From IMG/VR virus record IMGVR_UViG_3300044911_003339, positions 1 through 64,000 of that record: a stretch of 64,000 nucleotides of DNA; one strand, given 5' to 3'. The position numbers and the translations under genes were made by a program. The notes below the pieces were generated by a model. That model did no database searches. It was not told where the DNA came from and worked only from the letters and a program-made list of their open reading frames with translations. This DNA comes from a virus. The first letter of the stretch is position 1; every line of letters begins with the position of its first letter. This document shows positions 33,901-59,553 of the stretch, piece after piece.

Positions 33901-34077
33901 ATGAACCACGACACCAAGAACACCGGCTACGCGTGCTCGGTCTGCAAGGCGTCTGCTCTCGTGGTGAACGGGAAGCTGATTCGCTCGTGTGAGCACTCGG
34001 CTCCAGTCCTCGCCGACATGACCGCGACCGTCTCGCAGCACGGTGGGGTCTCCCTCCCGCAGCCGCAGCGGGTGTGA
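33901..34077 (+). CDS. small hypothetical protein
   Basis: MNHDTKNTGYACSVC...CEH; absent from ORF track (58 aa). Confidence 0.55.
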   Translation: MNHDTKNTGYACSVCKASALVVNGKLIRSCEHSAPVLADMTATVSQHGGVSLPQPQRV

Positions 34078-34078
34078 C

Positions 34079-36100: not shown

Positions 36101-37255
36101 GTGGCGCTCATCCGCAACGGCGTGTCGCTCAACTCGAATCCGATGCGCGTCGGGGGAGGACCGAACGTCAACTCGATCAACCGACCCATCGGGCCGGGCG
36201 CGCAGCGTGGCTTCTACGCAGGCGAGGGCACGGTCGTCAGCGGAGCATCGATCGCCGACACGGCGGCGTTCCCCAACGGCTACGAGGGCGGGACAGCGTG
36301 GCTTCTCGCGCCCCGAGGCGGCGGTCTCTCCGCCTACACGACGTTCACGCACCCGAACGTCGTCACCGCGGCGCTCGCCTCGGGCATCAACATCGGGGCG
36401 ACGCTCACGTCAGACGGCACGATCACGACCGCTGCGATTCAGGCGCTCGCGAATCTCGTCTCTACGCTCACGGCGAACGGCGCGGTCACGACCGCGGCGA
36501 TCACGACTCTCTCGAATCTCGTCGCGTCGCTGACGGCGACGACCACAGTCACCGCTGCGATTCAGGCGCTCGCGAACCTCGCAGCAACACTCACGGCTGA
36601 CGGCTCGATCTCGAACGCAGAGCTTTCACTCGTCGTCGGGCTCGCGTGCTCGATGGTCTCCGACGGTTCGATCTCGACGGCGAACCTGAAGCTCGTCGTC
36701 GGAATCGTATGCGCCATGCTCTCCGACTGCGGCGTGAGCGGCACCCTCACCGCTCCGGCCAACCTCGCGGCGACGCTGCTCGCATCCAACAACGTGACGG
36801 GTGCGCTCTCTGCTCTGAGTAATCTGATCTGCGAGATGACCGCGAACGGATCGCTCGTCGCGTCGCTGCGAGGCACTCTGAGCATGAGCGCTGTGCTCAC
36901 GACTGCCGGAAGCTCGACGGACGCTCCCACGCCAGCGGAGATTGCTGTTGCCGTCTGGCAGTACGTCCTGAGCGGTGTGACGGCAGGCGACCGCTTGTCG
37001 GAGGTCACCGCGGCCCGGATGTCGCTGCTCTCGACCGAACTCGACCCCTCGCTGTCCGGCAGCACGGCGGCGCAGATGGTGCTCGCGCGGAAGATCCTGC
37101 ACAATCGCCTGGAAGTGGACATCGGCTCGCAACGGCTGGTGCTCTACGACGACGACAACACGACCGTGCTGAAGCGCTGGCCGCTCCAGACCACCGGAGG
37201 CGAGCCGGTCACCACCTCGCCTGGTGTGCAGACGAAGAGAAGGGCTCCGACGTGA
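36101..37255 (+). CDS. putative fibre-like structural protein
   Basis: About 23-aa repeats (TAAIQALANL..TLTA.G); TPAEIAVAVW; LYDDDNTTVL. Confidence 0.6.
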   Translation: MALIRNGVSLNSNPMRVGGGPNVNSINRPIGPGAQRGFYAGEGTVVSGASIADTAAFPNGYEGGTAWLLAPRGGGLSAYTTFTHPNVVTAALASGINIGATLTSDGTITTAAIQALANLVSTLTANGAVTTAAITTLSNLVASLTATTTVTAAIQALANLAATLTADGSISNAELSLVVGLACSMVSDGSISTANLKLVVGIVCAMLSDCGVSGTLTAPANLAATLLASNNVTGALSALSNLICEMTANGSLVASLRGTLSMSAVLTTAGSSTDAPTPAEIAVAVWQYVLSGVTAGDRLSEVTAARMSLLSTELDPSLSGSTAAQMVLARKILHNRLEVDIGSQRLVLYDDDNTTVLKRWPLQTTGGEPVTTSPGVQTKRRAPT

Positions 37256-39552
37256 AGATTCGCAAGTCGATCACACAGGGGCTCAACGAGGTCGGCGGGC
37301 AGGTCTCTCAGGGCCTCAACGTCGGTGGCGCGGTCCCCGCCTCAGAACCGGCAAGCACGGGCTTCGTGCTGATCCAGGAACCGGCGCGGCACCCGAGTCG
37401 CCGGTTCCCGCACATGCAGACCGAGAGGCTTCGTCGCCTCGCGGAAGCAGGACTCGGCGAGACGCAGCGCTTCGTGCGCAGAATCTCGCAGACGGAGGAA
37501 GAGGGCACGCGCCCCGCTCCTCACGTCCTCTCGCCCGAGGACGTGACGCGACAACTGGGAGTGCCGCTCGACCTCGAACAGAAGATTCACGCCATCGTGC
37601 GTGAATCGATTCCTCCGAGCGACGGATCGAAGATCGTGGACGTGAAGCGCTTCGGCAGCGCTCGAACGCGACTCCTCGACTTCATGCGGAGACAGAAGGT
37701 CACCCTCGACTCGGACCTTCGCGCAGAGATCATGCGTCGCGCCCTTCACTACTGGCGAGCAAACTTCCGCGTCGATTACGGACGCACCCCGGAGATGCGC
37801 ATGGGCAAGGCACTGGTGATCCCCAAGCAGCGCTTCGTGCTCATGAAGGGCCCGAAGGTAGAAGCCCCTGGCGCGAGCCCGACGGGTCGAGTCTCGATGC
37901 ACCCGATGCACGTGGACGCGTCGTCGGGGAAGGTCGGCCACAAGTACATCGCGCGCAAGCCCGATGGGCATGGCGGCTGGCTCTACAAGTACCCCGGCGA
38001 CACCGAGTTCCGCCCCGGCGCGGGAATCGAAGAGGGGCACACGCAGGCCCCCGAGGGCGCGCACCTCGGCGTGCACGAGAGCGGATTCCGCCCGACGCAC
38101 GAGCGCCACGCGGACGGTGGGCACACGTTCCACTTCGGAGAGGACGTGTCCGCCCACATCCCGGCCAACGCGGACCGCGAGCACCACCGGAAGGAGCACG
38201 CGAAGCACGGGGCCGCCTACAAGAAGGCGATGGCCGAGGGCAACGAGGAGAAGGCCAAGGGGCACCTGCGCGCCTACCAGATGCACGCCGAGGCCCACAA
38301 CCGCGCCCTCTCGGCCGAGCGCAAGGCCGCGAAGACGGGCATGGCTCCGCCAGGGCACGGGCTGCCTCCTGACGTGGGCAGTCAGGTCGAGGGCAAGCCC
38401 CAGAAGCAGCCCCCCGGAGCAGGCGGTCCTGCTACGATGCCCGGTGCCCCTGGCGGCTCTCCAGGCCAGCGACCTCCTACGCAGGGCGGGATGGCCGCTG
38501 GGGGCGCTCCGATGACTCCTGGGGGCGCAGGGGAGCCCCCGCAGGGCTTCGCAGCCCGCACGCCTCCCGGAGCCGACGTGGGGCAGTACCGCCAGCATCT
38601 CCAGGCCGCGAGCGACGCGATGTCGAACCTCGCGGCGACGCATGCGCACGTCGCGGACCTCGACGCCCGCATCAAGACCGTGAAGGCGGATCGCTCGCTG
38701 CACCCGCGCATGAAGAAGCAACTCGCGGCGCAGCTACAGGCGGAGAAGGCGCAGGCGGAGCTTGACCGATTCCAGCACGAGGACGCGCACGACGCGGCCA
38801 TGGAGCAACTGAAGTCGATTCACTCCGCGCTCCGAAAGGAGAAGCTGAAGCACCACCCGATCGTGAAGATGATCGACGGGCTGCTGAAGCTCATGCAGAG
38901 CTTCGCGTCGAAGATGGGCCACGGGCCGAACCCGAAGGGCGAAGAGGGCGCGAGCCCCAACGAGCGCCAGCGGGTCGTGGACTTCTACAGCGCCCGTTCC
39001 GACGCAGCCGGCGAGGCGAAGGCCGGCGCAGGCGGCGAGGAGTTCAAGCCACGCGAGCGTACGCTCTCGCTGCGCGCTCCCACCGACACGGGCGGAGCCA
39101 AGCCCGTCGGAGAGAATCCCGCTGCGAGCCCCGCGACCCTCGCACAGAAGCGCGAGGCTCCGAAGACGGCGGCGAGCGACAGCACGTGGGACGCGGACCT
39201 CGCGAGCGCGAAGGCGAAGCGTGACGAGACCGAGCGTGCTGCGAGTCAGGCTGGCGACACGTGGCGGAATCGCCAGATCGCGCAGGGCAAGGACACGCAG
39301 GGCATGCTGCGTGAGCAGCTTCGCGCTCCCACGGAGACCTCGGAGGCCAAGACGGCAGCGCCGAAGCGCCCGACTGCGGCGGGCACGGTCGCGCCGCGGA
39401 AGCGGGCCGCGAAGTCGGCGACCGAGGCGGACCTCATCGATCTCCGCAAGGCGCTCGCGCTCGCGCACGAGGGCCTGCGTGAGACCGCGCTGACCGACAA
39501 GCGAATCGTCTTCACGCCCCCGACCGAGCGCCGCGTGCGCCTGGAGTGGTGA
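37252..39552 (+). CDS. large low-complexity putative internal head protein
   Basis: HKYIARKPDGHGGWLYKYP tag; K-[SAG] sites; His-rich and Pro/Gly-rich segments. Confidence 0.6.
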   Translation: MKIRKSITQGLNEVGGQVSQGLNVGGAVPASEPASTGFVLIQEPARHPSRRFPHMQTERLRRLAEAGLGETQRFVRRISQTEEEGTRPAPHVLSPEDVTRQLGVPLDLEQKIHAIVRESIPPSDGSKIVDVKRFGSARTRLLDFMRRQKVTLDSDLRAEIMRRALHYWRANFRVDYGRTPEMRMGKALVIPKQRFVLMKGPKVEAPGASPTGRVSMHPMHVDASSGKVGHKYIARKPDGHGGWLYKYPGDTEFRPGAGIEEGHTQAPEGAHLGVHESGFRPTHERHADGGHTFHFGEDVSAHIPANADREHHRKEHAKHGAAYKKAMAEGNEEKAKGHLRAYQMHAEAHNRALSAERKAAKTGMAPPGHGLPPDVGSQVEGKPQKQPPGAGGPATMPGAPGGSPGQRPPTQGGMAAGGAPMTPGGAGEPPQGFAARTPPGADVGQYRQHLQAASDAMSNLAATHAHVADLDARIKTVKADRSLHPRMKKQLAAQLQAEKAQAELDRFQHEDAHDAAMEQLKSIHSALRKEKLKHHPIVKMIDGLLKLMQSFASKMGHGPNPKGEEGASPNERQRVVDFYSARSDAAGEAKAGAGGEEFKPRERTLSLRAPTDTGGAKPVGENPAASPATLAQKREAPKTAASDSTWDADLASAKAKRDETERAASQAGDTWRNRQIAQGKDTQGMLREQLRAPTETSEAKTAAPKRPTAAGTVAPRKRAAKSATEADLIDLRKALALAHEGLRETALTDKRIVFTPPTERRVRLEW

Positions 39553-40262
39553 TGTCCAGCAAGGCCGAAGCCGTCGTCGTCGCGAAGGCGCTCGCGCTCA
39601 TGGGCAAGCGAGGTCGCCGAGGTCCCGTCGAGGACGAGGTGGCTCCGCGTCGCGCGAGCACGAAGCTCCATCGAGGCCGGAAGATGCCGGCCGAGCCTGC
39701 GTCTCGCTGGCCTCACAGCGCGAAGCGGCCGAAGGCCGTCGTCCAGCCCGACCTCACAGAGCCCGGTGTGCAAGGTCGCCCGCCGAAGTCGAGCGAGACG
39801 CCCGTCTACGGCAAGGGCTCGACCATCGGACCCGGACCAGGCGGCGGAGGGATTCTCGGCAAGCGGAAGGGGAAGCGCCCCTACGCACGCTCGCCGAAGT
39901 ACACGACGCTCGACATGATGGCGGCCGATCTCCACGGCAAGGTCGTCGGCCCGATGGGGTCGAAGGAGAACTCAGGCACCAGCTACGGGCCCGGCCCTGG
40001 ATGGAACTCGAACCCGATGCCGGACTTCGGCGACATGTTCCCCGGCCGAGACCCGAAGGGGTCGGAACGCGAGGAGACGAAGGCGCAAGCGAATCGCATG
40101 GTCTCGAATCGCAAGCGCAACGAGGGTACGATGGGGTTTCACGGAACCCCTCCCAAGCCGACGCTTCGGGCTGAAGCGAAGGAGCAGTTCTTCATCACCG
40201 CGACGCGCGAGAGCGAGAACAAGCCTCGCCTCTACGCGCGCGTCGGCTACAAGAGGTCGTGA
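39552..40262 (+). CDS. basic Pro/Gly-rich putative internal head protein
   Basis: Very K/R-rich, disordered; VVAKA site near N-terminus. Confidence 0.55.
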   Translation: MSSKAEAVVVAKALALMGKRGRRGPVEDEVAPRRASTKLHRGRKMPAEPASRWPHSAKRPKAVVQPDLTEPGVQGRPPKSSETPVYGKGSTIGPGPGGGGILGKRKGKRPYARSPKYTTLDMMAADLHGKVVGPMGSKENSGTSYGPGPGWNSNPMPDFGDMFPGRDPKGSEREETKAQANRMVSNRKRNEGTMGFHGTPPKPTLRAEAKEQFFITATRESENKPRLYARVGYKRS

Positions 40263-43200
40263 TGCCGCTCGGTCACAAGTACATCTCGCGCAAGCGCAAC
40301 GCTTCTGGCGGTTACGATTACGTCTACCCGCATCCCACGACGGGTGAACGCGTTCGCATCCGCACTTCCCTGCGTCTCGACGGCGAGCATCGCTCGGTCA
40401 CGGCCGAGAATCCCGAAGACCGCACGATGTCGGCGACAGCCTGGTCGCGTCGCGGGGCAGACGGCAAGACGCTGACCGAGGCTCACTCTGCGCTCGACGA
40501 GGCCGAAGCTCCGATTCATCGCGCCGCGGTCGCTGACACGATGAACCGGAAGAAGACGATCACGCGCCTCTCGCACAAGACCTCCAGCTACGGCGAGAAG
40601 CACGGCATCGGCCCTGACGACAAGGGAGGCTCTGCGGTTCGTGACGCCGCACGCAAGGCGGCGTGGGCTGCTTCCGAGCCGCCCACTGGAGGCCACACCC
40701 GCGAGACGCACGAGAAGGCCGCGAAGGCGCACGAACACGCCGCGAAGCTCGAACGCGAGGCCGGGCGACGTGATGGCTACGTGAGGCACGCTTCGATGGC
40801 CGAGCAGCATCGCAACGCGATGGAGCGGCTGGGCTCCTCAGAATCCGATTCACCAGTCTATCCGTTCTGGGTCCGCAACCAGAGGACCGGGGTCTCCGAG
40901 GGATTCAAGACGCGTGAGCAGGCCGACACGCACCTGCGGCACTACGTGAAGAATCCCGAGGACCACATCATCGAGCAGGTCGGCGCGAAGGGTCCGAAGG
41001 TCAACGTGGACCACCTGCTCTCCGGCAACATGGGAATCCCGCGCATCGAGATGCCGCAGATCCGTTCCTTCAAGCTGCCCGAGTTCCTCTCCAAGCTGGA
41101 GAAGAAGGGCATCAAGGCGACGAAGGGTGAGCGCGCAGTCGGCTCGCTGAAGCCGACGCAGAACGAGATCCACGGCGAGCGCGTCCAGGAGATCATCGAA
41201 GACCCGAAGGAGCGAGAGAATCTCGCGAAGCAGATCATCATCTCGAACGACGGCTTCATCCTCGATGGGCACCATCGCTGGGCAGCGCTCACGACGATCG
41301 ACCCGAAGGCGAAGATCAAGACGCTCCATGTGGACATGCCGATGCGCTCTCTGCTGAAGGAGGCGCACGCGTTCGAGGGTGTGGAGTACCAGAAGAGCGA
41401 ACAGGAGACGGACATGGGCGGCGACCTCATCGACAACCTCGAACTGCTCGCGAAGGGCGACACGCTCGTCGGCTTCTACTCGCCCGGTGTCGCTCGCGGC
41501 GGCAAGTACTACCGCCGAGTCCCGACCGGGAATCCGAAGCACCCGTGGAGGTACTTCTACACGGAGGCGGAGTACAAGGACGCGATGAAGGACGCTTCGC
41601 ACGTCGGCGGGACCGAGGCGAAGCGGGCGCGCGTGAAGAAGCGCGTCTTCGTGAGCGAGAAGGAGGCGCGCGAGAAGTACGGCCTTCCTGGTACGACGAA
41701 GGAGCTTCACGCGCCGGACGGGAACTACCCGCCCGAGCGGAAGAAGCTCCACGAGGAGATCATCTCGCACTTCCTCGACGGCAAGGGGAAGCCCCCCGCA
41801 GGCAAGAAGCCCGTCGCGCTGCTCACCGTCGGAGGTCCGGCCGCGGGCAAGTCCACGCTGCTGAAGCACCTCGGCGAGAACCTCGACGATTACGTGATGA
41901 TCGCCGCCGACGACGTGAAGGAGAAGCTCCCCGAGTTCCAGCGCGCGCTCAACCTCGGGAATCGCAAGGTGACGCAGCCCGACGGCTCGGTCACGAGCGT
42001 GCCAGTCACGGCGAGCCACTCGGGCTGGATGGCGCACGACGAGAGCACGGACATCTCCGACGAACTGGAGAAGCGCGTCATCGCCTCGGGCAAGTCGGCC
42101 ATCTTCGACGGCACGGGCAAGAACGTCCCGAAGATGCTCGCGAAGATCGCCGCGCTGAAGAAGGCCGGCTACCACGTGCGCGTGGTGATGCCGCACGTGC
42201 CGATGGGCGAAGCGATCAAGCGGCTGCACTCGCGCTCGGAGGACACGGGCCGCACGCTGCCCGTCGATGCGGCGATCGACATGCACCGGAAGATTCCGGG
42301 CAACTTCGAAGCCATCGCTCGCGCTGCCGACGACTTCTCGCTCTTCAAGTCGGGCAACCCGCCGAAGCCGATCTGGACGGGCGGCGCGGGTCAGGAGGAC
42401 AAGATCCACGACCACGAGGAGATGTCGAAGTTCAACCTCGCGCGAGGACTGCACCAGGACATCGGCGCAGAGGAGAAGGCGGGCGGAATCTACAAGAAGA
42501 GCGAGGACCCCGAAGCGCTCGACGCGACCGGCCCGAAGCAGCCGCACCACACCATGAACGAGTTCATGGAGATCCTCTCGCGCTGGAACGGCTCCATCGA
42601 CAACCACGAGGACGGCCGGAGCAAGGTGCCGCACGACGGCGACATCGAGGACGGCCTCGCGGACGTGATTCCCGACGCGGAGGACGAGACCGTCAAGCAC
42701 CTGAAGCGTCGTGCTCCGAAGGCCAAGAAGGCGAAGGGCGCTCGCTTCATGGAGCGAGGCGAGGTCGAGAAGAGCGGCGACCTCATCGACTCGCTGGAAG
42801 CTCTCGTGAAGGGCGGCGAGGCTGCGGGGCACAAGCTGGTGCACTCGGAGAATCCGCGTGCGCACGGAGGAGACGTGACGAAGAGCGACCGCTCGCGTCG
42901 CCTGGAGGAGAAGATCATGAGCGACGAGATGCAGAAGGGCCTCTACCAGTTCCAAGGTCTCGGCTCGGGCGAGGTCCCGGACCAGTACCTCTACGATTAC
43001 CTCTGCGCGTTCGTCGAAGAGGCGTACGAGCACGAGCGGCAGGAGAAGGTGCACCAGAACACGCTCGTGCCGCCGTCGAGCACGGGGGCGAGCATCGAGG
43101 ACGTGTGGGCGACCGCCGTCTTCAACGAACTCGTCAGCATGATGGGCTCGAACGCGAACCTGAAGCGCGCGGCGGTGAAGTACAACGTCACGAAGGACGT

Positions 43201-43624
43201 GATCGCGCACATCCTCCGCAGCAAGGGCCTCGTGCGCCCCTTCTCCGACGCCGGCACGTGGACGAGCGACTACGACTCGATGCGCGCGATGGACGGCGAG
43301 GGCGTCACGCGCCCGCTCGTGCTCTCCGAGTCGGCCCGCGCGCAGTACCGCGACATCGTGCCGGATCCGTTCGGGCACAACGTCGGAGTCGCGCTCGCGA
43401 AGGCCGAGCCCGCGCCGACCGCGCCGCTCTTCATCGACGATTCCCACGACCCGCACGGGAATCTCGCGAAGGCCGAGCGTGCTCGCCTCGCACTCGTGGA
43501 CTACCGGCAGAACGCCGAGTGGCGGCCGAACGTCTCGCCGACGTGTATGATCCACGGCAGCGCGGATCTCACGAAGTCGATGAATCTCTCGAACCCGCAC
43601 GCTCGCTGCACCTGCCCGCGCTGA
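40262..43624 (+). CDS. polyvalent protein: ParB-like domain plus zeta-toxin-like P-loop kinase plus unknown C-terminal domain
   Basis: LKPTQ...IIISNDGFILDGHHRWAA; GGPAAGKST, IAADDVKEKLP, IFDGTG. Confidence 0.85.
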   Translation: MPLGHKYISRKRNASGGYDYVYPHPTTGERVRIRTSLRLDGEHRSVTAENPEDRTMSATAWSRRGADGKTLTEAHSALDEAEAPIHRAAVADTMNRKKTITRLSHKTSSYGEKHGIGPDDKGGSAVRDAARKAAWAASEPPTGGHTRETHEKAAKAHEHAAKLEREAGRRDGYVRHASMAEQHRNAMERLGSSESDSPVYPFWVRNQRTGVSEGFKTREQADTHLRHYVKNPEDHIIEQVGAKGPKVNVDHLLSGNMGIPRIEMPQIRSFKLPEFLSKLEKKGIKATKGERAVGSLKPTQNEIHGERVQEIIEDPKERENLAKQIIISNDGFILDGHHRWAALTTIDPKAKIKTLHVDMPMRSLLKEAHAFEGVEYQKSEQETDMGGDLIDNLELLAKGDTLVGFYSPGVARGGKYYRRVPTGNPKHPWRYFYTEAEYKDAMKDASHVGGTEAKRARVKKRVFVSEKEAREKYGLPGTTKELHAPDGNYPPERKKLHEEIISHFLDGKGKPPAGKKPVALLTVGGPAAGKSTLLKHLGENLDDYVMIAADDVKEKLPEFQRALNLGNRKVTQPDGSVTSVPVTASHSGWMAHDESTDISDELEKRVIASGKSAIFDGTGKNVPKMLAKIAALKKAGYHVRVVMPHVPMGEAIKRLHSRSEDTGRTLPVDAAIDMHRKIPGNFEAIARAADDFSLFKSGNPPKPIWTGGAGQEDKIHDHEEMSKFNLARGLHQDIGAEEKAGGIYKKSEDPEALDATGPKQPHHTMNEFMEILSRWNGSIDNHEDGRSKVPHDGDIEDGLADVIPDAEDETVKHLKRRAPKAKKAKGARFMERGEVEKSGDLIDSLEALVKGGEAAGHKLVHSENPRAHGGDVTKSDRSRRLEEKIMSDEMQKGLYQFQGLGSGEVPDQYLYDYLCAFVEEAYEHERQEKVHQNTLVPPSSTGASIEDVWATAVFNELVSMMGSNANLKRAAVKYNVTKDVIAHILRSKGLVRPFSDAGTWTSDYDSMRAMDGEGVTRPLVLSESARAQYRDIVPDPFGHNVGVALAKAEPAPTAPLFIDDSHDPHGNLAKAERARLALVDYRQNAEWRPNVSPTCMIHGSADLTKSMNLSNPHARCTCPR

Positions 43625-43660
43625 ACGCGCAGGAGTCGCCCCGAGGCGTAGAGGAGACGC

Positions 43661-45460
43661 ATGGGCCTGTTCGACAAGTTCAAGGATGGATTCGAAGCGC
43701 TCGCGAAGGCGCTCGGCGAATCCGAGGAAGACGGCGAGGACATCCCCTTCGACAAGATGCGGGATGCCCTCGTGCGTTCAGGTCTCGCGGAACCGACGGA
43801 GGAGAAGCCGCGCGCGCTCTTCCACGATCCCTACGCGGTCACGGACTGGGGAGGCTGGCGAGAGCGACCGTCGTCGATGACGTACGAGACGCTTCGCATG
43901 ATGAGCGTGAAGAACACGGTCATCGCCTCCATCATCCAGATCCGGTGTAATCAGGTCGCGCAGTTCGGTCGGCCTCAGCAGGGCCCGTACGACAAGGGCT
44001 ACCGGATCATCCCGCGCGACAGGCGGGACAAGAAGAAGGTGCTCACGCCCGCGGAGAAGAAGCAGGCCGCGGAGATCGAGCGGATGCTGGAGACGACGGG
44101 CTTCCTCCTGCCCGGCGAGAAGCCCGCGGATCGCGACAGCTTCCGCACCTTCTTGCGGAAGGCCACGCGCGACATCCTCACCTACGACCAGTGGGCGTTC
44201 GAGAAGATTCGCGACCGCAAGGGTCGCGTCTCGCGCTTCATCGCGCTCCCCTCAGAGAGCATCCGGCCGGCGAGCGCGGACATCGAGCACATGGACGTGA
44301 AGTCCCTGCGCGAGCGCGTCTCGCACGTCCAGGTCTACGAGGACACGCCGATCGCCGAGTTCAGCCCCGAGGACATCGCGTGGTGCGTGATGAATCCTCG
44401 CTCCGACCTGCGCGCGAACGGCTTCGGCTTCTCGTACATCGAGATGCTCGTCTCGCTCGTGACCGCGTGGCTCTACGGGTTCGAGTACAACCAGCGATTC
44501 TTCATGCAGGGCAGCGCCATCAAGGGCATCCTGAACGTGAAGGGCGCGATTCCCGATCGTCAGCTTCGTGCGTTCCGACGCATGTGGTATTCGATGGTCT
44601 CGGGCGTGAGCAACGCGTGGAAGACGCCGATCCTCAACAGCGAGGATCTCCAGTGGGTCCCGCTCCACGTGAACAACCGCGAGATGGAGTACGGGCAGTG
44701 GATGGACTGGCTCACGAAGCTCACGTGCGCCGTGTTCGGAATCGATCCCGTCGAGATCAACTTCATCTTCGGCAACAGCGGGCAGTCGTCGTCGCTGAAC
44801 CAGTCGCGCCCGAACGCGGCGGAGGTCCAGGAGTCGAAGGACAAGGGCCTCGTGCCTCTCATGGACCACATCGCCGACAACCTGAACATGCACATCATCT
44901 GGGAACTCGCACCAGATTTCGAGTTCGCCTTCACGGGCTTCGACGCGCAGGCCGAGGAGAAGGAGCAGGAGGGTCGCATCAAGGCGGTCACGAACTACAA
45001 GATGATCGACGAGGTGCGCGCGCTCTACGAAGACGATCCGCTGCCGAACGGCATGGGCCAACTGATTCTGAATCCGACCTACATGCAGTGGGCGATGCAG
45101 AAGGAGCAGGCCGCGATGGGCGGACCTCCCGGTGGAGGTGAGGGCGACATGGGCATGGGCGATCCCGACGCGCTGCCCTCCACAGCACCGGGCAACGACG
45201 AGGAAGACCTCGCAGGGCCTCCCCAGAAGGGCCCGCCCAAGCCCGGCCAGCCCCCGAAGGGTCCGCAGGGCCCGCAACCCCCGAAGGGCGCGCAGAAGCC
45301 CCCAGGGAAGCCCTTCGGCTCCCCCGGTGAGGAAGCGCTCCAGGCGTCAGCCTTCGTCGAGCGCACGGCGCGTGGCATCCTCCGCAAGTCCCGCGTACAC
45401 ACGCGCACCGAAGGCGGGCGGGAAATCATCGACATCGAACTGCCGGAGGATCCGACATGA
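43661..45460 (+). CDS. portal protein
   Basis: NPRSD...GFSYIE...YNQRFFMQG...KGILN...EMEYGQW...FGIDPVEINF...SKDKGLVPL; SPO1/Twort-like. Confidence 0.92.
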   Translation: MGLFDKFKDGFEALAKALGESEEDGEDIPFDKMRDALVRSGLAEPTEEKPRALFHDPYAVTDWGGWRERPSSMTYETLRMMSVKNTVIASIIQIRCNQVAQFGRPQQGPYDKGYRIIPRDRRDKKKVLTPAEKKQAAEIERMLETTGFLLPGEKPADRDSFRTFLRKATRDILTYDQWAFEKIRDRKGRVSRFIALPSESIRPASADIEHMDVKSLRERVSHVQVYEDTPIAEFSPEDIAWCVMNPRSDLRANGFGFSYIEMLVSLVTAWLYGFEYNQRFFMQGSAIKGILNVKGAIPDRQLRAFRRMWYSMVSGVSNAWKTPILNSEDLQWVPLHVNNREMEYGQWMDWLTKLTCAVFGIDPVEINFIFGNSGQSSSLNQSRPNAAEVQESKDKGLVPLMDHIADNLNMHIIWELAPDFEFAFTGFDAQAEEKEQEGRIKAVTNYKMIDEVRALYEDDPLPNGMGQLILNPTYMQWAMQKEQAAMGGPPGGGEGDMGMGDPDALPSTAPGNDEEDLAGPPQKGPPKPGQPPKGPQGPQPPKGAQKPPGKPFGSPGEEALQASAFVERTARGILRKSRVHTRTEGGREIIDIELPEDPT

Positions 45461-46221
45461 GCGTCCGCACCTTCCTCGACATGAGCTTCCAGATCGGACT
45501 GGAGAACAGTCTCGACGATTCGCTGTTCGAGCGCACGAACTCGCAGCTTCTCGACACGCTTGACCACGCAACCGGAGGTGTCGTGTCGCTCGCGGCGCTT
45601 CAGACGAACGTCACGCTGCCCTTCGGCGACGTGACCGAGGCGCGAATCCTCTACATCGAGGCCGAGGACGGCGACGTGCGCTTCACGCTCGGCGGCGGGC
45701 TCGCGACCTCGGGGCGTATCGACGCCGTGGGCGCGGCCTACCCGACGGGCTTCGTCGGCGCAGAGACGCTCGACTTCGAAGTGGACGCCACGGCGATCGC
45801 CGTGACCTTCACGTCGGGAGACCAGACGATCACGCAGGTCATCAACCGTATCAACGCGGCGTGCGCGCTCGCGGGATTCGCCACGCCGATCGCGAAGGTG
45901 AGCGCGGGGCAGCTTCGCCTCGAAAGCCCGACGACGGGCACGTCTTCGTCGATCGAGATCATCGGAGGCACAGGCCGCGCGACGCTCGGCCTCCCCGCTC
46001 CCTCCACCATCAACTCAGGTGCGAACTCGACGCCCGGCACGAGCCCCGTGGAGCTTCGTCGTCCCGCGGACCCCGCGGGCGCGAGCGCCGCGGCAGGCGT
46101 GAAGGCGATCTTCTTCGGCACCGTGAAGACGAGCAGCATCGTCATGGAGAATCTCTCCGACAACGTGACGAAGGTGCGCTGGGCGATCGCGGGAGACCTC
46201 ACGACCGACGACGCGTGCTGA
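45457..46221 (+). CDS. putative structural protein
   Basis: Beta-rich; INRINAA...LRLESPTTGTSSSI domain seen in sheath-like insertions. Confidence 0.5.
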   Translation: MSVRTFLDMSFQIGLENSLDDSLFERTNSQLLDTLDHATGGVVSLAALQTNVTLPFGDVTEARILYIEAEDGDVRFTLGGGLATSGRIDAVGAAYPTGFVGAETLDFEVDATAIAVTFTSGDQTITQVINRINAACALAGFATPIAKVSAGQLRLESPTTGTSSSIEIIGGTGRATLGLPAPSTINSGANSTPGTSPVELRRPADPAGASAAAGVKAIFFGTVKTSSIVMENLSDNVTKVRWAIAGDLTTDDAC

Positions 46222-46231
46222 CGGAGGTCCC

Positions 46232-48046
46232 GTGGCTCGCGTACGCATCGAAGCCCCCGAGGGACTGGACCGACTGACGCTCGCGCAGATCGTCGTCGGT
46301 CCTCACCTGCTTCTGAAGTCCCAGCACGTCCGGCATGCCGGCGAGCGGACGTTCTCGCGCTACGTCGCGCTCCAGGAGTTGAACGAGCACGTCGTGAAGT
46401 CGTTCGAGGAGACGCTGAAGCAAGCGCTGAAGCGCGCGGACGATTACATGCAGCGCACGGTGCTGCTCGCCGACGTGGGGCTGCGGAAGGCGGACGAGCA
46501 CCTCCCCGCGTTCCCTCCGCTCTTCACGCCCGAGCAGATGGAGGCGGTGCGCCGCATCCTCACCGATCACGTGCACGGCTTCATCGCGACGACCGTGGAT
46601 CCGAATCTTCTCTCGCAGCACGAGGTCGCGCGCCTGATCGCCGAGGGAGTGATTCCCGCGTCGATGAGCTACGTGTTCCAGGCCGAGCCGGGGCAGGAGG
46701 CTCCTCTCGCCGAGGACTGGATCGGAGCGGCCTACACCTACGGCGCGATGCTCGGCTCGATGCGAGAGGGCGATGACGCCGCCTACGTGAAGTCGCTGTC
46801 GTGGCCGACGTTCGCCAAGAAGCAGAAGGCACAGCCGCTCGTGCTGACCCCGCACGAGCAGGCCGCGCTCGACGTGGCGAAGCACAGCGCGGGCATCCAC
46901 TGCCGCGGGCTCGGGAACGAAGTCGCCGACGACTTCTCGACGATCGCCATCGACACGGACCGCGCGCTGCGGAAGCGATTCGAGCACGAGATCCAGACCT
47001 CGACCGAGGCGAACATCGCGCGCCGCGACGCGTGGCGGAAGCTCGCGAGCGACCTCGGGCACAAGACCGGGGACTGGGCGCGAGGCTTCGGGCGCATCGC
47101 CGCGACCGAGAAGCAGCGCGCGTTCCAGGAGGGATTCTCCACGACGCTGAAGAAGCGCGAGAAGAAGCGCCCCGAGGACGTGCGCGTCGCCAAGCTCCCG
47201 GCACCCGACGCGTGCCCCGACTGCGTGCGCCTGCACCTCACCGCAGGTCCCGGTTCCAAGCCGCGCATCTTCTCGCTCGCAGACCTGGAGGCCAACGGCT
47301 CGAACATCGGCGTGAAGCGCGCCTCGTGGAAGGCCGTCGTCGGGCCGGTGCATCCGTGGTGCGGGTGCGAACTCGTGCACGTGCCCGACGGCTGGGATTT
47401 CGACGACGAGAACAAGCTCATGCCCACGAAGCTCGAACGCAGCGCACGCCTGGAGGCGGACCTGCGGAAGAGCGCGGACAAGCAGCGACACCTGACCTAC
47501 AGGGAATCGGTTCCCGAGAAGGGCATCGTCGTTCGCGTCGGCGACCCGCTCACGCGAGCGGAGATCGACAAGGTGATCGCGCGCACGCCCGAAGTGCTGT
47601 TCGACCACAAGGTCGGCGTCACGCTCATCACGACCGATCTGCCGACGGTGCAGAACGTGCTCGACCCGCACGATCTCGCCTACTGGACGGGCAACGAGAT
47701 TCGCCTCTCGCAGACTCTCGCGCCCGAGCGCGTGAACCTCGTGCTCATGCACGAGTTCGGTCACGCGCTGAACGTGTTCCTCTACCAGAAGTTCGACGAG
47801 AACACGGACCGCGTGCGCGCGTGGCACGACGCCCTGTTCGCCATCGCGAAGGTCGAGGGCTTCGTCTCCGATTACGCGACCCGCGAGCCGATCGAGAACG
47901 CAGCCGAGGTGACCCGGCTCTACCTCTACGACCGGCCGAAGCTCATGCGGGAGTTCCCGCGGCAGTTCGCCTTCTGCCAGAAGGACTACCGCGACATCCT
48001 CCCGCCCTGGAAGTGGAGGAACGATGGCGATTCTAAAGATCGCTGA
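46232..48046 (+). CDS. MuF/SPP1 gp7-like head morphogenesis protein fused to HEXXH metallopeptidase
   Basis: RIAATE...CPDC...GPVHPWCGC; then MHEFGHA...VSDYA...ENAAE. Confidence 0.85.
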   Translation: MARVRIEAPEGLDRLTLAQIVVGPHLLLKSQHVRHAGERTFSRYVALQELNEHVVKSFEETLKQALKRADDYMQRTVLLADVGLRKADEHLPAFPPLFTPEQMEAVRRILTDHVHGFIATTVDPNLLSQHEVARLIAEGVIPASMSYVFQAEPGQEAPLAEDWIGAAYTYGAMLGSMREGDDAAYVKSLSWPTFAKKQKAQPLVLTPHEQAALDVAKHSAGIHCRGLGNEVADDFSTIAIDTDRALRKRFEHEIQTSTEANIARRDAWRKLASDLGHKTGDWARGFGRIAATEKQRAFQEGFSTTLKKREKKRPEDVRVAKLPAPDACPDCVRLHLTAGPGSKPRIFSLADLEANGSNIGVKRASWKAVVGPVHPWCGCELVHVPDGWDFDDENKLMPTKLERSARLEADLRKSADKQRHLTYRESVPEKGIVVRVGDPLTRAEIDKVIARTPEVLFDHKVGVTLITTDLPTVQNVLDPHDLAYWTGNEIRLSQTLAPERVNLVLMHEFGHALNVFLYQKFDENTDRVRAWHDALFAIAKVEGFVSDYATREPIENAAEVTRLYLYDRPKLMREFPRQFAFCQKDYRDILPPWKWRNDGDSKDR

Positions 48047-51000
48047 TCTCGTGAAGAGCGGAGGTCCGTACATCGGGCCGAAGGGCGGTGTGTGGGCCGA
48101 CCCGCAGCACACGGTGCCGTGGAAATCGGATCATGAGGACACCACCTCTCACTTGTTCCACTCCACGCCCGCGTACGCGATGAGCCGGATCAAGCGGGAA
48201 GGTCTTGCTCCGCGCAAGGGCGCAGGTCTCTTCCAGCACGGCGGCTACGATCTGCACTCGCAAGGCAAGGTGTTCCTCTCGAACAACCTCTACGCGGCGA
48301 AGCAGTGGCACAGCAAGGTCGAGGCTCAACTCGAACACCACCACGATAATCCGAAGCACCACGTTGCAGTCATGCTTCGTGTGAAGCCTCGGGAGACGCA
48401 TCTCGACGATGTTGGAGACCGCGATGTGAGCGGCTCTCGCTTCGTGCGCGACGTTGTGCCTGCAACCGACATCGAGTTCTTCCACGAAGGTACGAAGCGC
48501 TGGAAGCCGGTGAAGGATTACAAGCACGGCACGCACGGTATCCCGGACGACCACTACGAAGCTCACGCGCCGCGCGACGAAGAGGCAGACGCCGCCGAGA
48601 AGGCCGCAGCGAAAGAGGCACGACGCGCGAAGCGCGAAGCCGAGGAGCAGGCGACTCGCGCGCGGCTCGCGGCGCTCCAGGAGGAGCGCGCGAAGCGCGA
48701 GGCTGCGGAAGCGCAGGTTCACTTCAGGGATTCTGACGAAGGCAAGGCAATCCTCACGCGCTGGAAGGGCCTCTCCCCCGAAGAGCGTCAGGCGAAGGCG
48801 AAGCGCATCCTCGACGCGCCCCGCCCTTTCCCCGGCGCTCCCTCGATGCTGTCGCTCGGGCAGCGAGGCGAGGTGTGGCGCGAAGCTCTCGGAGTCGATG
48901 AGAAAGGGAATCTCGTGAAGTCGCGATTCATCATCAAGGCAGGCCCCTCAGGTGGGGGTTGGATGCCGATCCCCGGAGGCCACCACGGAGGGCTTCGGCG
49001 ACGACACGGCGCGGGCTGGGAGTACTGGTACCCGAACGGAGCCCCGCACTTCGTGCTCCGCGAGCAGAAGCACCCCGAGGAGCAGCACGGGCACGAGCAG
49101 ATCGACCCGGAGCCCTCGCACTGGGCCCTCGTCACGCCCGGCCCCGGCCTGCCCCCGGTCGGGTGGACCGCGGGCGGCGTGAACCCGCACGACACGAAGA
49201 CCCCCGTGAAGGAGGCCGGTGTCTCGGGGAAGCTCTACCGCATCAAGAATCCGCACATCCGAGAAGGCTGGGCGCTGCTCACCGACGTGCGCTCGGGCGA
49301 GGACCACATGGTCCAGCACGACCGCGTGATGCCCGTTCGGTGGCTTTCGCCCGAAGAGAGGGCTCTCCAGGGCTCTACAGAGCCTCAGGAGCCGTTTTCG
49401 ACCTGGAAGCCAGGGGTGGGTCCCTCCAAGCGCCCGAGCGGCGGAGGGGCGTCTGAGGGCAAGCGGATGCCCTCCTTCCCCGACTCCCGAGCGCTGCCCG
49501 GAACCGAGACGCACAAGCTGGAGAACGGCGCGTACGTCTGGCGCAAGGTCACGCGGTACGAAGCCGACGAGGACGGCACCACTCGCAAGGTCGAGCGGCT
49601 CGCGCCTGGAATCCCCGACTCCGACAAGATCGCGCTCATCGCAGAGTACGAGGGCCTCGTCGCCAAGACGGCGAAGCGCGTGCGCAGCGCGTTCGGGCTC
49701 AGCGCCCGCCTCTCCACCGGCCCCGGTCAGCGCACGGTGGACGACACGCTCGTCGAGCTTCGGCAGGCCGGCGTGGAGGGTCTGCTCCACGCCATCGACA
49801 GCTATCGCCCCGTGGGCCCGTTTGCAGCGCACGCCCAGCAGTACGTTCGCGATTACGCGCGTCTCCACGCCGCACGGGAGTTCGCGGGAGGCATCGCGAT
49901 CCCGCGGCGGCATGCGCGCCTGCTCTCGTCCTACATCGCGGCCCGCGCAGAGGCCGCGCGCGTGAGCGGAAGCCACGACCCGAGCCCCGAGGTGGTCGCG
50001 GAGTTCTGGAAGCCGAAGAAGCGGGACCTGCACTCGGGCCTCTCGCCCGAGGAAGGCGGAGGAACGATTCCTCTCGCTGGCTACACGCTGAAGCGCAAGA
50101 CGACCTCGACCGATCCCGAGACGGGCAAGAAGAAGACGACCGTCGAGGGCGAGGACGTGGTGCAGCAGCCCGGCCGCCTGGAGTGGGCGCAGCAGTTCCA
50201 CGCGTTCCTCGTCGGGCAGGGAGGCATGGCGGACATCGACGAGCAGGCCGCGCTGTTCCCCGGCCTCGGCGTCGGCACGGGGCTCGGCGCGGACGAGCGC
50301 ATCGCCGTGCGCGAGGCGATGATGCGCGCGCTCCCTCCCGACGGGACGATCGTCACGGTCCAGGCGGGCCCGCAGGCCCAGTTCCGCGGCGAGACCTGGA
50401 AGGCGATCGACCTCGCCCTCGGGCTCTCGTCGGGCGATCCGCTGCCTCTCGACGAAGTGGTCCGTCGCGTGCCCGTCGAGGGATCGCGCGGAGGTGAGTG
50501 GAAGCGTCTCGGAAGCTCGCGAGCGCGCGCCGCGATCGAGGCGCTCATCCGCGACGGCCTGAACACGGTCGCGCGTCACCTGCGAGGCGACGAGGACCGA
50601 GCAGCGTCGCTCGCGCAGGCCCTCGTGACGAAGCTCGTGCCGACCGAGGCTCCGAAGGAGCGGCTCCCCACGATGCGAGAGCGAATCCGCGCTGCGATGG
50701 CCCGCATCACCCCGGCCGAGGTGCAGCGCTGGCGCGAGGAGACGCGAGCGCGCTACCCCGAGCGGCCCGACATCGGCCGACGGATGTCTCGTGTCACCGA
50801 TTCCGAAGCGAAGCGCCGCATCGTCGAGGAGCGCATCGCCGCAGCCCCGCTCACGCCCGAGATGCACGAGGCGATGCTCCGCACGATGACGGCGATTCGC
50901 CAGGGCGTCTCGGCCTCGGGCCAGAACGTCTTCGGCGTCGTGGACCCGAAGGGGTCGAAGAAGAGCCTGCGCGTGCACTCGCTCTCCAAGGCCGGCGACC

Positions 51001-51137
51001 ACGGCGCGTCCGATTCGGCTATGGTCGGGGAGTGGCTCCGGTTCCCGGAGCTTTCGCGACTTCGCTGGGCGAGCGAAGATCCGCTCGTGCACGCTCCGAC
51101 GATCGCTCGCGCACGGTTCGATTCCATCATCGGGTGA
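48024..51137 (+). CDS. polyvalent protein: ART/Tpt1-fold domain plus sigma70-like domain
   Basis: LFHSTP...IKREGLAP...VFLS...VMLRV; LIAEYEGLVAKTAKR...ELRQAGVEGLLHAIDSY...FAAHAQQYVR...IAIP...PSPEVVAE...LALGL...PLPLDEV. Confidence 0.8.
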   Translation: MAILKIADLVKSGGPYIGPKGGVWADPQHTVPWKSDHEDTTSHLFHSTPAYAMSRIKREGLAPRKGAGLFQHGGYDLHSQGKVFLSNNLYAAKQWHSKVEAQLEHHHDNPKHHVAVMLRVKPRETHLDDVGDRDVSGSRFVRDVVPATDIEFFHEGTKRWKPVKDYKHGTHGIPDDHYEAHAPRDEEADAAEKAAAKEARRAKREAEEQATRARLAALQEERAKREAAEAQVHFRDSDEGKAILTRWKGLSPEERQAKAKRILDAPRPFPGAPSMLSLGQRGEVWREALGVDEKGNLVKSRFIIKAGPSGGGWMPIPGGHHGGLRRRHGAGWEYWYPNGAPHFVLREQKHPEEQHGHEQIDPEPSHWALVTPGPGLPPVGWTAGGVNPHDTKTPVKEAGVSGKLYRIKNPHIREGWALLTDVRSGEDHMVQHDRVMPVRWLSPEERALQGSTEPQEPFSTWKPGVGPSKRPSGGGASEGKRMPSFPDSRALPGTETHKLENGAYVWRKVTRYEADEDGTTRKVERLAPGIPDSDKIALIAEYEGLVAKTAKRVRSAFGLSARLSTGPGQRTVDDTLVELRQAGVEGLLHAIDSYRPVGPFAAHAQQYVRDYARLHAAREFAGGIAIPRRHARLLSSYIAARAEAARVSGSHDPSPEVVAEFWKPKKRDLHSGLSPEEGGGTIPLAGYTLKRKTTSTDPETGKKKTTVEGEDVVQQPGRLEWAQQFHAFLVGQGGMADIDEQAALFPGLGVGTGLGADERIAVREAMMRALPPDGTIVTVQAGPQAQFRGETWKAIDLALGLSSGDPLPLDEVVRRVPVEGSRGGEWKRLGSSRARAAIEALIRDGLNTVARHLRGDEDRAASLAQALVTKLVPTEAPKERLPTMRERIRAAMARITPAEVQRWREETRARYPERPDIGRRMSRVTDSEAKRRIVEERIAAAPLTPEMHEAMLRTMTAIRQGVSASGQNVFGVVDPKGSKKSLRVHSLSKAGDHGASDSAMVGEWLRFPELSRLRWASEDPLVHAPTIARARFDSIIG

Positions 51138-51145
51138 GGTTCTCC

Positions 51146-51490
51146 ATGAAGAGGTTCTCCATCGACCCCGCCACGCTGCCGACCACATGGCGGGTCGGGC
51201 GGCGTGTCGGCAATAGCGGGCTGGAGCACGCCTTCGATCTCCGCCGTCGGGATGACGGCGGAATCTCCATCTCGAACGTCGAGCACCCGCTCACGGAGAC
51301 CGAGCGCACCATGCTGCTCTCGCACTTCGGCAAGGCGCGCGTCGTGACGATCGGAGGCGAGGCCGACAACGGCGCGCTCGTGACGACGATGCAGCGCCAC
51401 GAGCCGGGGGAGATCGAGAACTTCGTGGAGGCGGTCTACTCGCTGCCCTCACCCTTCATGGTGATGCCGAACGCTCGGAGGGAGACATGA
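51146..51490 (+). CDS. hypothetical protein
   Basis: GAGGT SD; coupled to the giant gene. Confidence 0.65.
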   Translation: MKRFSIDPATLPTTWRVGRRVGNSGLEHAFDLRRRDDGGISISNVEHPLTETERTMLLSHFGKARVVTIGGEADNGALVTTMQRHEPGEIENFVEAVYSLPSPFMVMPNARRET

Positions 51491-54400
51491 GCCGGTTCGT
51501 GATTCCTGCGCTCCGCGCCGCACTGCCGGACGCCCTGGCGAAGTCGTTCCAGCGAGGCCCGCTCGCGCAGCACAAGTACCTGAAGCGAGAGCCCTACTTC
51601 GTCGGGGGCAAGCTGCGCTGGAGGTACTGGTACGCGAGCGACGAGCTTCGCAAGCAGGGCATGGTCGAGCACGACCCCGCGGGCGAGCACGAGCACCACC
51701 TGCTCGCGAACATCGCGGACATCTACGAGCACTTCAAGTCCGTGATCCGCTCGACTGCTGCGACCCCGACGACGGCGATCGAGGGAATCTTCCAGGCCGC
51801 GGTCGATGACCCGAAGGCGCAGCGCGTGCCACAGGTCGCGATGTCTCCGGCGTTCCAGGCGCAGCACGTTCAGCCGTTCATCGACGCAGAGGCGAAGGGA
51901 GCACCTCCCGAGGCGAGCCCGATCGTGCGCGTGCACGACGCGCTGGAGATGGTGCCCGACTACCTCCTGAAGCTCGTGATGGGCGGGACGAAGAACACGA
52001 AGCACCCCGGCTACAAGGGGCTCGGCCCGTACCCCGGTCTCTCCGCGCTCGTGATGAATCGCCAGGAGGACGAGGGAGCGGATTACGCGAACACCGCAGG
52101 TTGGGCGCATCCGAAGACGGGCGAGCTTCACCTGCTTGGCGGCGGCTCGGGCAAGCACGGCAGCGATTCGAGCTACTCCTTCCTCGACGGCGGCGACCCT
52201 GCCACGGCTCCCACGCCGACGGACTTCAACGACGCGAAGGTGCATCTCGAAAAGGTCGTCTGGCACGAGCTTGGGCACCACGTGCACTTCACGCTGGAGA
52301 CCGAGCAGCCGGACGTGATGGATTCGTGGAGGGACCTCTCGACGGGTCCGGGTCCGAAGCCGACGGCCTACGCGCACACGGCATGGTGGGAGGACTTCGC
52401 AGAATCCTTCTCGGGCTGCTTCGCGCTCCCGAAGGTGATGGCGATGCGCTGCCCCGAGCGATACGACTGGATGCGACAGCACGTCCTGAAGTCGCTGCCC
52501 GAGAGGTCCGCGCTCCTGAAGATGTCGGACGAGGAACTCGCGTGGTGGAACAAGAAGAAGACCACGCCGCCCGGCAAGCTGCTGATGCACCTGAAGTCGA
52601 ACGCGCCCGCGCGTCGCTTCGGTGCCTACTACAGCGACAAGGACCAGTTCTTCACGGTCGGCAAGGGAGGGCGCACGGTCTACCTGCGCTTCGGTCCGTC
52701 CGAGCCTGATCAGGAGGACGGCTGGACGCAGGTCCCCTCGACCATCGACCCGGAGACCGGGCTGCCGGTCTACGACGCCGCCTACGGTCCGCGCTTCAAG
52801 GTGCAGGGCAACCTGAAGGAGATGTACGACGAGCGCGGGAATCCGCTCGACGACTTCCAGGCGTTCCTCTACCTCGGACAAGACGACCCCGAGGTGCAGA
52901 AGTTCGTCGCCGACACGATGGAGAAGTACGTCGCGACGTTGCCTCCGAACTCGCCGCAGCCGACGGAGTACGACGCGGTGCAGTGGCTCGCCGCGAAGGG
53001 CGGCGACGAGGCGAAGGCTCTGGAGACGCGTCTGCTCTCGTACAAGATGTACACGTCGCTCGGCTACAAGCGGGAGTCGGAGAAGATTTCCGCGAAGGAA
53101 GCCCACACGACGGAGAAGGAGCGCAAGCGAGTCGAGAAGGAGCGCGCGAAGGGCGGCACGGGCTACCTCGATCGCCACGACTGGGTTCCGGTCGAGATTC
53201 CTCGCTCGGAGTTCGTTCAGAAGTCGGGCACCTTCAAGTTCGACAACGTGCGACCCGCGGAGTACCAGCCGTGGCAGGCCCGCGAGTGGGATCCCGTCAC
53301 GAAGACCTCGCGTGTGAAGACCGTCTACGACCCTGCGGCCGGCAAGGTGGTGCCCGTGCGCACGGCGACGGTCTACGAGCAGGAGAACCCCGACGGCACG
53401 ACGTTCCGTGTGACGGTCGCGGAGGGCGAGCCCTTCTCGATCGGACAGACCATCCTCGCGCCGGTCAGCGTGAAGCTGCCCGACGGTCGCATCTCGCAGG
53501 ACTGGCAGCCCTACAAGCTGTCCGTCGAAGACGGCGAGATGACCGTCACGAACCTCGCGAAGAAGTTCCGCGTCGATCCTGAGGCGCTCCTTCGTCAGAA
53601 TCACCGCTACATGCGCGGGCAGATCACGGACCCGATGCTCGCCGCGCTCCTCAACCCGAGCGGCGAGGTGATTCGCGATCAGTTCGATCTCATGCGCCTC
53701 ATGAAGCTCGCGGCCGAGCAGCCCACGCCGCCGACCGCGTGGGTCAGCGTCCGGGGCAAGACGGGCTCGATCGCTCACTTCAAGGTGAGCTTCGACGGCT
53801 CGGGCCCGCCGCGCGTCGAGGGTCGTCAGTGGGCCGCGAAGCTCGGGAAGGACCCGACCGAACCCATCCGCCTCGATCAGATTCTCGGGAAGGACGACGA
53901 ACTCATCGGCGTCGAGACCGTGCGCGAGCGGAAGGCGAAGGAGGTCAAGATCAAGCCGGGCGGCCTGGTGTGGGTCACCGTCAAGAATCACCTCGGCGAC
54001 GCGAAGCGCGTGATGGCGCGCTACATCGAGAAGAAGTCGTTCGAGGAGAAGGGCAAGAAGAAGAACGCCCACGTCGTCCAGGTGCTCCCCGGTCAGGGCA
54101 CGGGTCTGCCGAAGGACCGCGTGATCGTCACGCGCGTGAACAAGAGCGACGAGAGCCAGATCCCCGGCAAGCCGGAGATTCGTCGGCGCTTCGTCGAGCC
54201 GATGCAGAAGGACGTGCTGCTCTACGCCGACGAGGTGCGGGTCGGCTCGGGCGACCGAGACACGAGCGGCGTGATCAAGATCCTCCCGCCGAAGAACGGC
54301 TCGGTCACGAAGGCGCAACTCGCTGCGATTCCTGGCGTGCGCATCATCGGACTGGAGAAGGCACGGAACAAGAAGGGCGGAGCAGTCACGGAGGAGCTTC

Positions 54401-58656: not shown

Positions 58657-58716
58657 CGCTGCTGCCGGATTCGTGACACACCATGGACCGTGGCCTGCTC
58701 CCGTGTGGAGCACGAG

Positions 58717-58752
58717 AGGCGACCGAAGGAGAAATCCATCGGTCGCCTTTTT
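58717..58752 (+). terminator. terminator-like hairpin upstream of protease gene
   Basis: AGGCGACCGA-A-GGA-GAAA-TCC-A-TCGGTCGCCT followed by TTTT. Confidence 0.7.
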
Positions 58753-59538: not shown

Positions 59539-59553
59539 AGAGGAGAAGAGGAC

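Follow-up and report, generated by a model that had tools for sequence, protein, structure and literature searches.

The stretch of DNA analyzed here, referred to as the window, comprises the first 64 kb of the virus record IMGVR_UViG_3300044911_003339 in IMG/VR, a genome of 105,161 bp that is rated complete and has a guanine-plus-cytosine (GC) content of about 67%. Almost all genes of the window are located on the plus strand, and four large open reading frames (ORFs) of its head module share a short motif, K-Y-x-x-R followed by an aromatic stretch of the type [WY]-x-Y-x-Y, which is predicted to form a beta-hairpin. An earlier note on this DNA had listed five copies of this hairpin and had proposed that it is a shared DNA-tethering, packaging, or ejection signal that remains on each processed effector.

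Hairpin copies in the head module

The head module begins with the gene for the large terminase (31139-32872, plus strand; phrog_38, 1.5e-62). Three unassigned genes separate it from an ORF of 766 amino acids (aa) (37252-39552, plus strand), in which residues 230 to 248 are a canonical hairpin (37939-37995, plus strand) that scores 35.7 bits, or 30.7 bits with a profile built without window sequences. Following a 238-aa ORF, a 1121-aa ORF (40259-43624, plus strand) with ParB-like (phrog_2859) and Zeta_toxin domains contains two copies: a canonical one at its extreme N-terminus (residues 6 to 24; 40274-40330, plus strand; 37 bits with the profile lacking window sequences) and a copy with a long, 9-residue loop, termed type B (41501-41560, plus strand), which stands between the ParB-like and Zeta-toxin-like domains and is preceded by a junction helix at 41423-41464. 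The portal gene (43661-45460, plus strand; Phage_portal, 1.5e-21; phrog_12, 1e-50) has tagged genes on either side, and it is separated by a 254-aa and a 604-aa ORF from a 1037-aa ORF (48024-51137, plus strand). The copy in the latter, termed type C (48948-49040, plus strand), has an extra upstream P-P-G-x-G-W strand and a short-loop hairpin ending in W-E-Y-W-Y-P. The last carrier is a 2211-aa ORF (51487-58122, plus strand) with a zincin motif and SNF2/Helicase_C domains and with a long-loop hairpin at residues 29 to 49 (51571-51633, plus strand; 10 bits with the profile lacking window sequences). Its zincin call corresponds to H-E-x-x-H seen in the translation, to which no Pfam model matched. 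Directly 3' of this gene are those for the head maturation protease (58657-59538, plus strand; phrog_1028, 4.8e-50), a putative scaffold-like protein (59539-60588, plus strand), flanked by the protease and capsid genes, and the SU10-like major capsid protein (60626-62083, plus strand; phrog_752, 4.7e-87; SU10_MCP). All tagged genes of the window are thus placed between the terminase and the protease/capsid genes.

The five peptides of the earlier note translate exactly as given there. When the six frames of the 105,161-bp genome were searched with a strict regular expression (K-Y-x-x-R, 4 to 16 residues, aromatic-x-Y-x-Y/F), only four matches were obtained, all in the coding frame of large plus-strand ORFs; the fifth copy (48987) is a variant outside this pattern. 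The carriers had been described as otherwise unrelated, and BLASTP among the four proteins indeed detected similarity at the motif positions only. The statement that each copy is found at an N-terminus or shortly after K-[SAG] applies well to four copies; the copy at 37939 has its closest K-[SAG] dipeptide about 27 residues upstream.

Anatomy and predicted fold of the hairpin

A sequence logo anchored on the lysine of K-Y reads H-K-Y-(I/L/V)-x-R-x-P-x3-G-G-(Y/W)-x-Y-x-Y. The hairpin loop spans 7 residues in 266 copies, and in 65 copies it spans 9. The hairpin comprises about 20 residues, with 4 to 6 aromatic residues and a net charge that is mostly between +2 and +6. Upstream, Gly is usual at position -2 with respect to the K-Y lysine, and a Lys-(Ala/Gly/Ser) dipeptide that ends a short leucine-rich helix is found a few residues earlier. 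The order of the entire cassette is therefore a short helix ending in L-x-K-[A/G/S], 1 to 6 linker residues, the hairpin, and the payload.

The note's proposal of a beta-hairpin agrees with an AlphaFold2 model of the N-terminal 68 residues of the 2211-aa protein, computed with 86 aligned copies, in which residues 31 to 39 and 42 to 49 form two strands with a predicted local distance difference test score (pLDDT) of about 90 and nothing around them is confident. An N-terminal strand of this protein was considered as a pairing partner of the hairpin and was discarded, since it is unpaired in the model and its pLDDT is below 60. The 2211-aa protein has near-identical short strands, S-R-F-(V/F)-I-P-A, at its start (51490-51510) and its end (58078-58098), and similar strands are located 5' of the hairpins in the 1037-aa (48921) and 766-aa (37828) proteins and in many relatives (K-S-x-R-F-V-I-P).

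We found no significant fold or sequence match between the hairpin and small aromatic beta modules (WW, SH3, Tudor-like). One subfamily has a small separate beta domain 3' of the hairpin, for which a fold search gave no match at E ≤ 0.001 and only weak Tudor/SH3-like hits. The P-x-G-W, the basic middle strand, and the W-x-Y-W-Y-P of type C presumably recall a three-stranded WW-like sheet, which we take as a lead only.

The family is large and essentially viral

A word-seeded search with the five copies retrieved 27 proteins, many of them with two to four copies. For the canonical form, we designed a degenerate DNA pattern of 54 nucleotides. In viral contigs, this pattern matched 100 times in 85 stretches of 30 to 73% GC, and all matches were in open frames. 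These matches have a common extended consensus at positions that the pattern leaves free (Pro in 81%, Ile/Leu/Val in 75%, and Gly at position -2 in 65%). In contrast, the same pattern was found in only 7 stretches of 596 Gb of bacterial and archaeal genomes, all of them from metagenome-assembled genomes, so that the viral collection, which is much smaller, harbors about 12 times more pattern-bearing stretches than the cellular genomes. At the protein level, a 33-position profile matched 696 proteins at E ≤ 1e-3 and 75 proteins at E ≤ 1e-10 among 1.84 billion cluster representatives, with single copies at about 50 bits and 1 to 5 copies per protein. Taken together, the DNA-pattern and profile counts indicate that the hairpin family is real, large, and essentially viral. 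The earlier note had asked for such a profile search, with matches confined to head cargo as the expected outcome; the matches are virus-specific and are located in polyvalent-type proteins of the head region, beside portal genes.

These counts also refute the notion that the copies look alike by chance or because of the composition of a GC-rich genome and have no common origin or function. The motif is short, and a profile made exclusively from copies of other phages fails to recover the copies at 41501 and 48987, which thus remain below significance. However, the motif is absent from the other frames of the genome, significant profile matches number in the hundreds, conservation extends to positions that the search pattern does not specify, and the excess of stretches is on the side of the smaller, viral collection. 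The type C copy scores 18.8 bits, with a profile that includes this copy itself; its extended consensus recovers seven further copies in six viral stretches. The type B variant swaps with canonical copies in relatives, and its exact pattern is present in six stretches of viral contigs. We therefore assign the copies at 41501 and 48987 to the family on the basis of the shared pattern, their equivalent position, and their occurrence together with canonical copies in single proteins of relatives, rather than of independent statistics, and consider this assignment a probable one.

The hairpin is absent from the catalogs inspected. Scans of the window proteins and of the carriers revealed no Pfam, NCBIfam, or PHROG model over it, none of the PDB chain sequences contains it (best match, E of 0.8), and the ESM Atlas gave sub-threshold matches only (0.77). 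Full-text literature searches with the motif letters and with terms for polyvalent cargo signals retrieved no description of it. A short-peptide tblastn search against plasmids and cultured phages, which is almost blind and hence weak evidence of absence, gave one chance-level plasmid match as well as Leptospira phage LE1. Gp26 of this cultured temperate phage (NC_048892, 28608-31187; hairpin locus L094:8932-9240) is a ParB-N protein with the hairpin at its N-terminus and is encoded in the structural-gene block, two genes 3' of the major head gene. As a cultured carrier, LE1 may serve as an experimental model.

Carriers are probable polyvalent proteins with diverse payloads

Pfam families were tallied over 57 hairpin-bearing ORFs of the viral loci and 85 profile matches. 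The payloads include ddrB-ParB, InPase, ART-PolyVal, RelA_SpoT, Zeta_toxin, DarA_C, LPD1, and LPD3, as well as SNF2/helicase domains, DNA methylases, RNA ligases, PolyA polymerase, PAPS reductase, and SAM lyase. The idea of a shared element that heads unrelated payload modules is borne out by this repertoire. In 107 of 169 proteins, which have 1 to 4 copies each, a copy begins within the first 80 residues, and internal copies stand between payload domains. The internal junctions resemble the true N-termini of stand-alone carriers, which show the same short helix and hairpin after the start methionine or after Lys-Ser. The claim that the tag marks the start of modules does not always hold, since a few copies are C-terminal (four in this set), among them copies on two portal-like proteins.

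Iyer, Burroughs, Anand, de Souza, and Aravind (2017) described several of the carrier domains as specific to phage-type polyvalent proteins, which they predicted to be packaged in the capsid, processed, and injected (PMC5512222). Like these proteins, which include DarB, DdrB, and DarA of phage P1, the carriers are giant, multi-domain, and adjacent to portal or terminase genes, and they have the same domain repertoire, including SNF2 with zincin. At least two unrelated effector or enzymatic domains are combined in the 1121-aa ORF (ParB-like and Zeta_toxin) and in the 2211-aa ORF (zincin and SNF2/Helicase_C). The repertoire of the phage branch (DdrB-ParB, InPase, RelA/SpoT, DarA) is present among the 57 + 85 hairpin-bearing proteins, and the gene order of the window as well as the portal adjacency in other loci place the carriers among portal, terminase, and head genes. 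Judged by their sequences, the carriers qualify as phage-type polyvalent proteins on each feature tested, and their packaging and delivery would follow by analogy. The tag itself appears to be limited to this phage-type branch of polyvalent proteins. The text of PMC5512222, as searched, mentions neither such a hairpin nor the junction cassette, and the Pfam LPD models derived from that work do not cover the motif. That a polyvalent protein can reach the virion is illustrated by gp47, which was found by proteomics in phi24B virions (bioRxiv 10.64898/2026.04.10.717836).

At 42803-42835 (plus strand), the 1121-aa ORF contains a decayed cassette, missing from the earlier note, with the junction helix (42779-42820) and the first hairpin residues only, followed by unrelated sequence. 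Two intact cassettes, along with one additional module, occupy the corresponding place in a relative (P0004/L045), which suggests that recombination at cassettes adds and removes modules.

The upstream lysine dipeptide and the head protease

In 314 of 344 copies (91%), a K-[AGS] dipeptide is present within the 12 residues before the hairpin, as compared to 25% of random windows from the same proteins. A homologue of the head protease of the window was identified in four of five diverse hairpin-bearing phage records. Scaffold and capsid proteins are usual substrates of head maturation proteases. In the window, the scaffold-like protein has two copies of the motif L-x-K-[AG], which is the same as that of the cargo junctions, at its N-terminus, and the capsid protein has one copy close to its own. 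This common motif suggests a single protease specificity for the scaffold-like, capsid, and cargo junctions, and the lysine dipeptide upstream of the hairpin is probably a site of the head maturation protease. The scaffold-like protein also carries a long Asp/Glu run. As to the claim that the tag is kept on processed effectors, a cut at the upstream K-[AGS] would leave it on the released fragment, whereas the cleavage in this claim is a predicted event.

A second, different tag, also missing from the earlier note, was noticed in the same position. Found right after Lys-Ser at the N-terminal end of the 1037-aa ORF (48060-48122, plus strand), it reads G-P-Y-I-G-P-K-G-G-x-W-A-D ... H-T-x-P-W, with the conserved core G-P-(Y/F)-I-G-P-(K/R)-G-G-x-W-A-D. 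Among the fetched proteins and loci, we counted 59 non-redundant copies, and K-[AGS] stands within the 8 residues that precede 51 of them. The tag also occurs in 18 of the 79 loci selected by portal homology, where it frequently shares a protein with the HKY hairpin. Because it holds the same post-lysine position, the general design appears to be "cut site, small tag, payload," in which two or more tags are interchangeable.

These data bear on the alternative that the hairpin is a primed-side exosite that brings the head maturation protease to L-x-K-[AGS] and thereby directs cutting, rather than serving as an address or for retention. The tight spacing of 1 to 6 residues between dipeptide and hairpin, the presence of an unrelated tag in exactly the same position, the occurrence of the same protease family in four of five carriers, and the truncated cassette where a payload module was lost are all in line with such docking. 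Nevertheless, the lysine motif of the scaffold-like and capsid proteins is not accompanied by a hairpin, so the protease would not need one, and most stand-alone carriers have a leader of only 3 to 15 residues, the removal of which seems pointless. We regard docking as distinctly unlikely.

Linkage to portal genes and virion components

Among 109 non-redundant ORFs that neighbor hairpin-bearing genes, Phage_portal was the most common family (12), followed by InPase, terminase, and SU10-like capsid. An iterated profile located the portal family of the window in 22 of the 85 loci (many of these loci are short), and the tagged gene was mostly located directly before or after the portal gene.

The tails of portal proteins were inspected as possible partners of the hairpin. 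Strongly acidic C-terminal tails are found on portals encoded beside tagged genes, but the tails in the 79 loci chosen by portal homology are equally acidic without the tag (mean net charge of -14 vs -7.7), and the acidic tail was rejected as a specific partner. A proline-rich tail combined with a WW-like reading of the hairpin was also discarded, the Pro-rich tail being confined to the window and close relatives. The portal tail of the window (45100-45460) is rich in Pro, Gly, and Lys, and most portals of the family have poly-Asp/Glu; all of them end in a Lys-(Ser/Ala) dipeptide and a subsequent short alternating beta-strand.

Portal-like proteins that themselves end in the hairpin are encoded at L066:4218-5741 (with 5726-6115), L077:1201-2628 (minus strand), and L086:3-995. 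An LPD3-type domain follows the hairpin, in another frame in L066 and L077 and in the same ORF in L086. This arrangement could correspond to a gene fusion or fission, or to a programmed frameshift that places cargo on some portal subunits.

The genomic context argues against a role that the hairpin would fulfill only after injection, for example by docking effectors on a common host structure or by aiding their refolding after tail passage. It is true that the payloads are effector-like and that the hairpin stays on each of them if the upstream cut is real. But portal-like proteins, which remain in the virion, also carry it, and its tight linkage to one type of head module (portal, SU10-like capsid, protease) points to a virion partner. 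Moreover, the hairpin is nearly absent from cellular genomes and, hence, from the polyvalent proteins of their plasmids and conjugative elements. A post-injection role is in our judgment highly improbable.

Two further genes of the window, at 34043-34927 and 34937-36097, are adjacent and have no family matches. Their common G-D-T-G-I-R-x-I motif and similar C-terminal halves indicate that they are probably paralogous structural proteins.

Proposed role as a portable tag on capsid-carried payloads

The existence of the family, its predicted fold, its restriction to viruses, the payload repertoire, the portal adjacency, and the enrichment of lysine dipeptides are observations. Our preferred reading of them, to which we assign a probability of about 0.55, is that the hairpin is a portable tag on the payload modules of capsid-carried, phage-type polyvalent proteins and that it is kept after the predicted cut by the head protease. 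The payload proteins would be enzymes that are carried in the capsid and delivered to the host. The head maturation protease would cut at the lysine of L-x-K-[A/G/S], leaving the hairpin as the new N-terminus of each released payload. The hairpin may then keep its payload attached to some abundant head component, polyanionic or interior, initially the scaffold or the capsid interior and later perhaps DNA, and every fragment could thereby be loaded, kept, and released with the genome. Considering that there are up to about ten copies per genome and that cargo numbers can be high, the partner should be abundant, such as the scaffold or capsid interior and subsequently DNA, rather than the twelve portal subunits.

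Several points weigh against this reading. The C-terminal copies, including those at the very C-terminus of two portal-like proteins, are not explained by a simple N-terminal address, and one cassette of the window has decayed. The acidic portal tail, a candidate partner, is just as acidic in phages without the tag. The hairpin was found within 10 kb in only 10 of the 79 loci chosen by portal homology alone, which is why we consider it an accessory cargo mark and not a core part of the head. Finally, one tag per polyprotein would be enough if cleavage occurred inside the capsid, so the conserved internal copies require either a post-cleavage role or cleavage before loading.

The proposal of a DNA tether, already made in the earlier note, differs from the portable loading tag in its partner. 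According to it, the basic aromatic hairpin would bind the packaged genome by stacking and charge, and the payload would travel with the DNA or act in cis, loading into the procapsid being achieved otherwise. The positive net charge and the aromatic residues of the hairpin are compatible with such binding, and the number of copies per phage genome implies an abundant partner. Contact with DNA would also fit the copies on the interior-facing C-terminus of two portal-like proteins, and many payloads (ParB-like nuclease, methylases, helicases) have DNA as their target. On the other hand, many others need no DNA (Zeta kinase, RelA_SpoT, ADP-ribosyltransferase, pyrophosphatase, SAM lyase), the cargo must enter the procapsid ahead of the DNA, and neither the fold search nor the PDB chain sequences revealed similarity to solved DNA-binding structures. 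We consider the DNA tether unlikely.

Comparison with known loading systems

The hairpin resembles the capsid targeting sequences known from T4 internal proteins and P1 DarB in that it is short, often N-terminal, associated with putative head cargo and with a probable protease site, and portable between payloads. The targeting signal of T4 internal proteins is cut off; the hairpin, in contrast, lies 3' of the likely cut and would be kept. In the case of P1, DarB's 30 N-terminal residues are enough for capsid targeting, about 40 DarB molecules are present per virion, and the authors observed no consensus shared by the Dar proteins' N-termini (PMC9024508). Unlike these N-termini, the hairpin is a profile-detectable family found across distant phages whose GC content ranges from 30 to 73%. 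Against the hairpin profile, the N-termini of P1 DarB and DdrB score about 0 bits. The mapped 30-residue targeting sequence of DarB includes L-K-Y-I-R, but it has no second strand and is not matched by the profile. The P1 darB gene (L174:10469-17236) adjoins the portal gene prt and is divergently transcribed. Domains of the MuF/SPP1 gp7 type, which bring C-terminal toxins or effectors into the virion, share with the hairpin the association with the head, the portal adjacency, and the variable payloads. The hairpin differs from them in having about 20 residues and two strands only and in being repeated within one protein, and no Phage_Mu_F match was obtained with the window proteins.

Implications

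Phage proteins that are carried in the capsid and enter the host are mostly unknown and are at present identified only by proteomics of cultured phages. A profile-detectable tag would permit the prediction of such cargo from metagenome sequences, and much of it looks like counter-defense or host-takeover functions. The tag would also explain the build of polyvalent proteins as strings of "cut site - tag - payload" cassettes, and in the laboratory it would offer a small handle by which selected proteins could be loaded into phage heads. We tentatively extend this view to the possibility that the hairpin and the second tag together represent a sequence-recognizable, transferable loading signal of a large phage clade, characterized by heads with a portal, an SU10-like capsid, and a phrog_1028-type protease, and that this signal would be enough to load any protein into these capsids. 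If this were true, a scan for the tags would list the injected effectors of uncultured phages in the way that signal peptides reveal secreted proteins.

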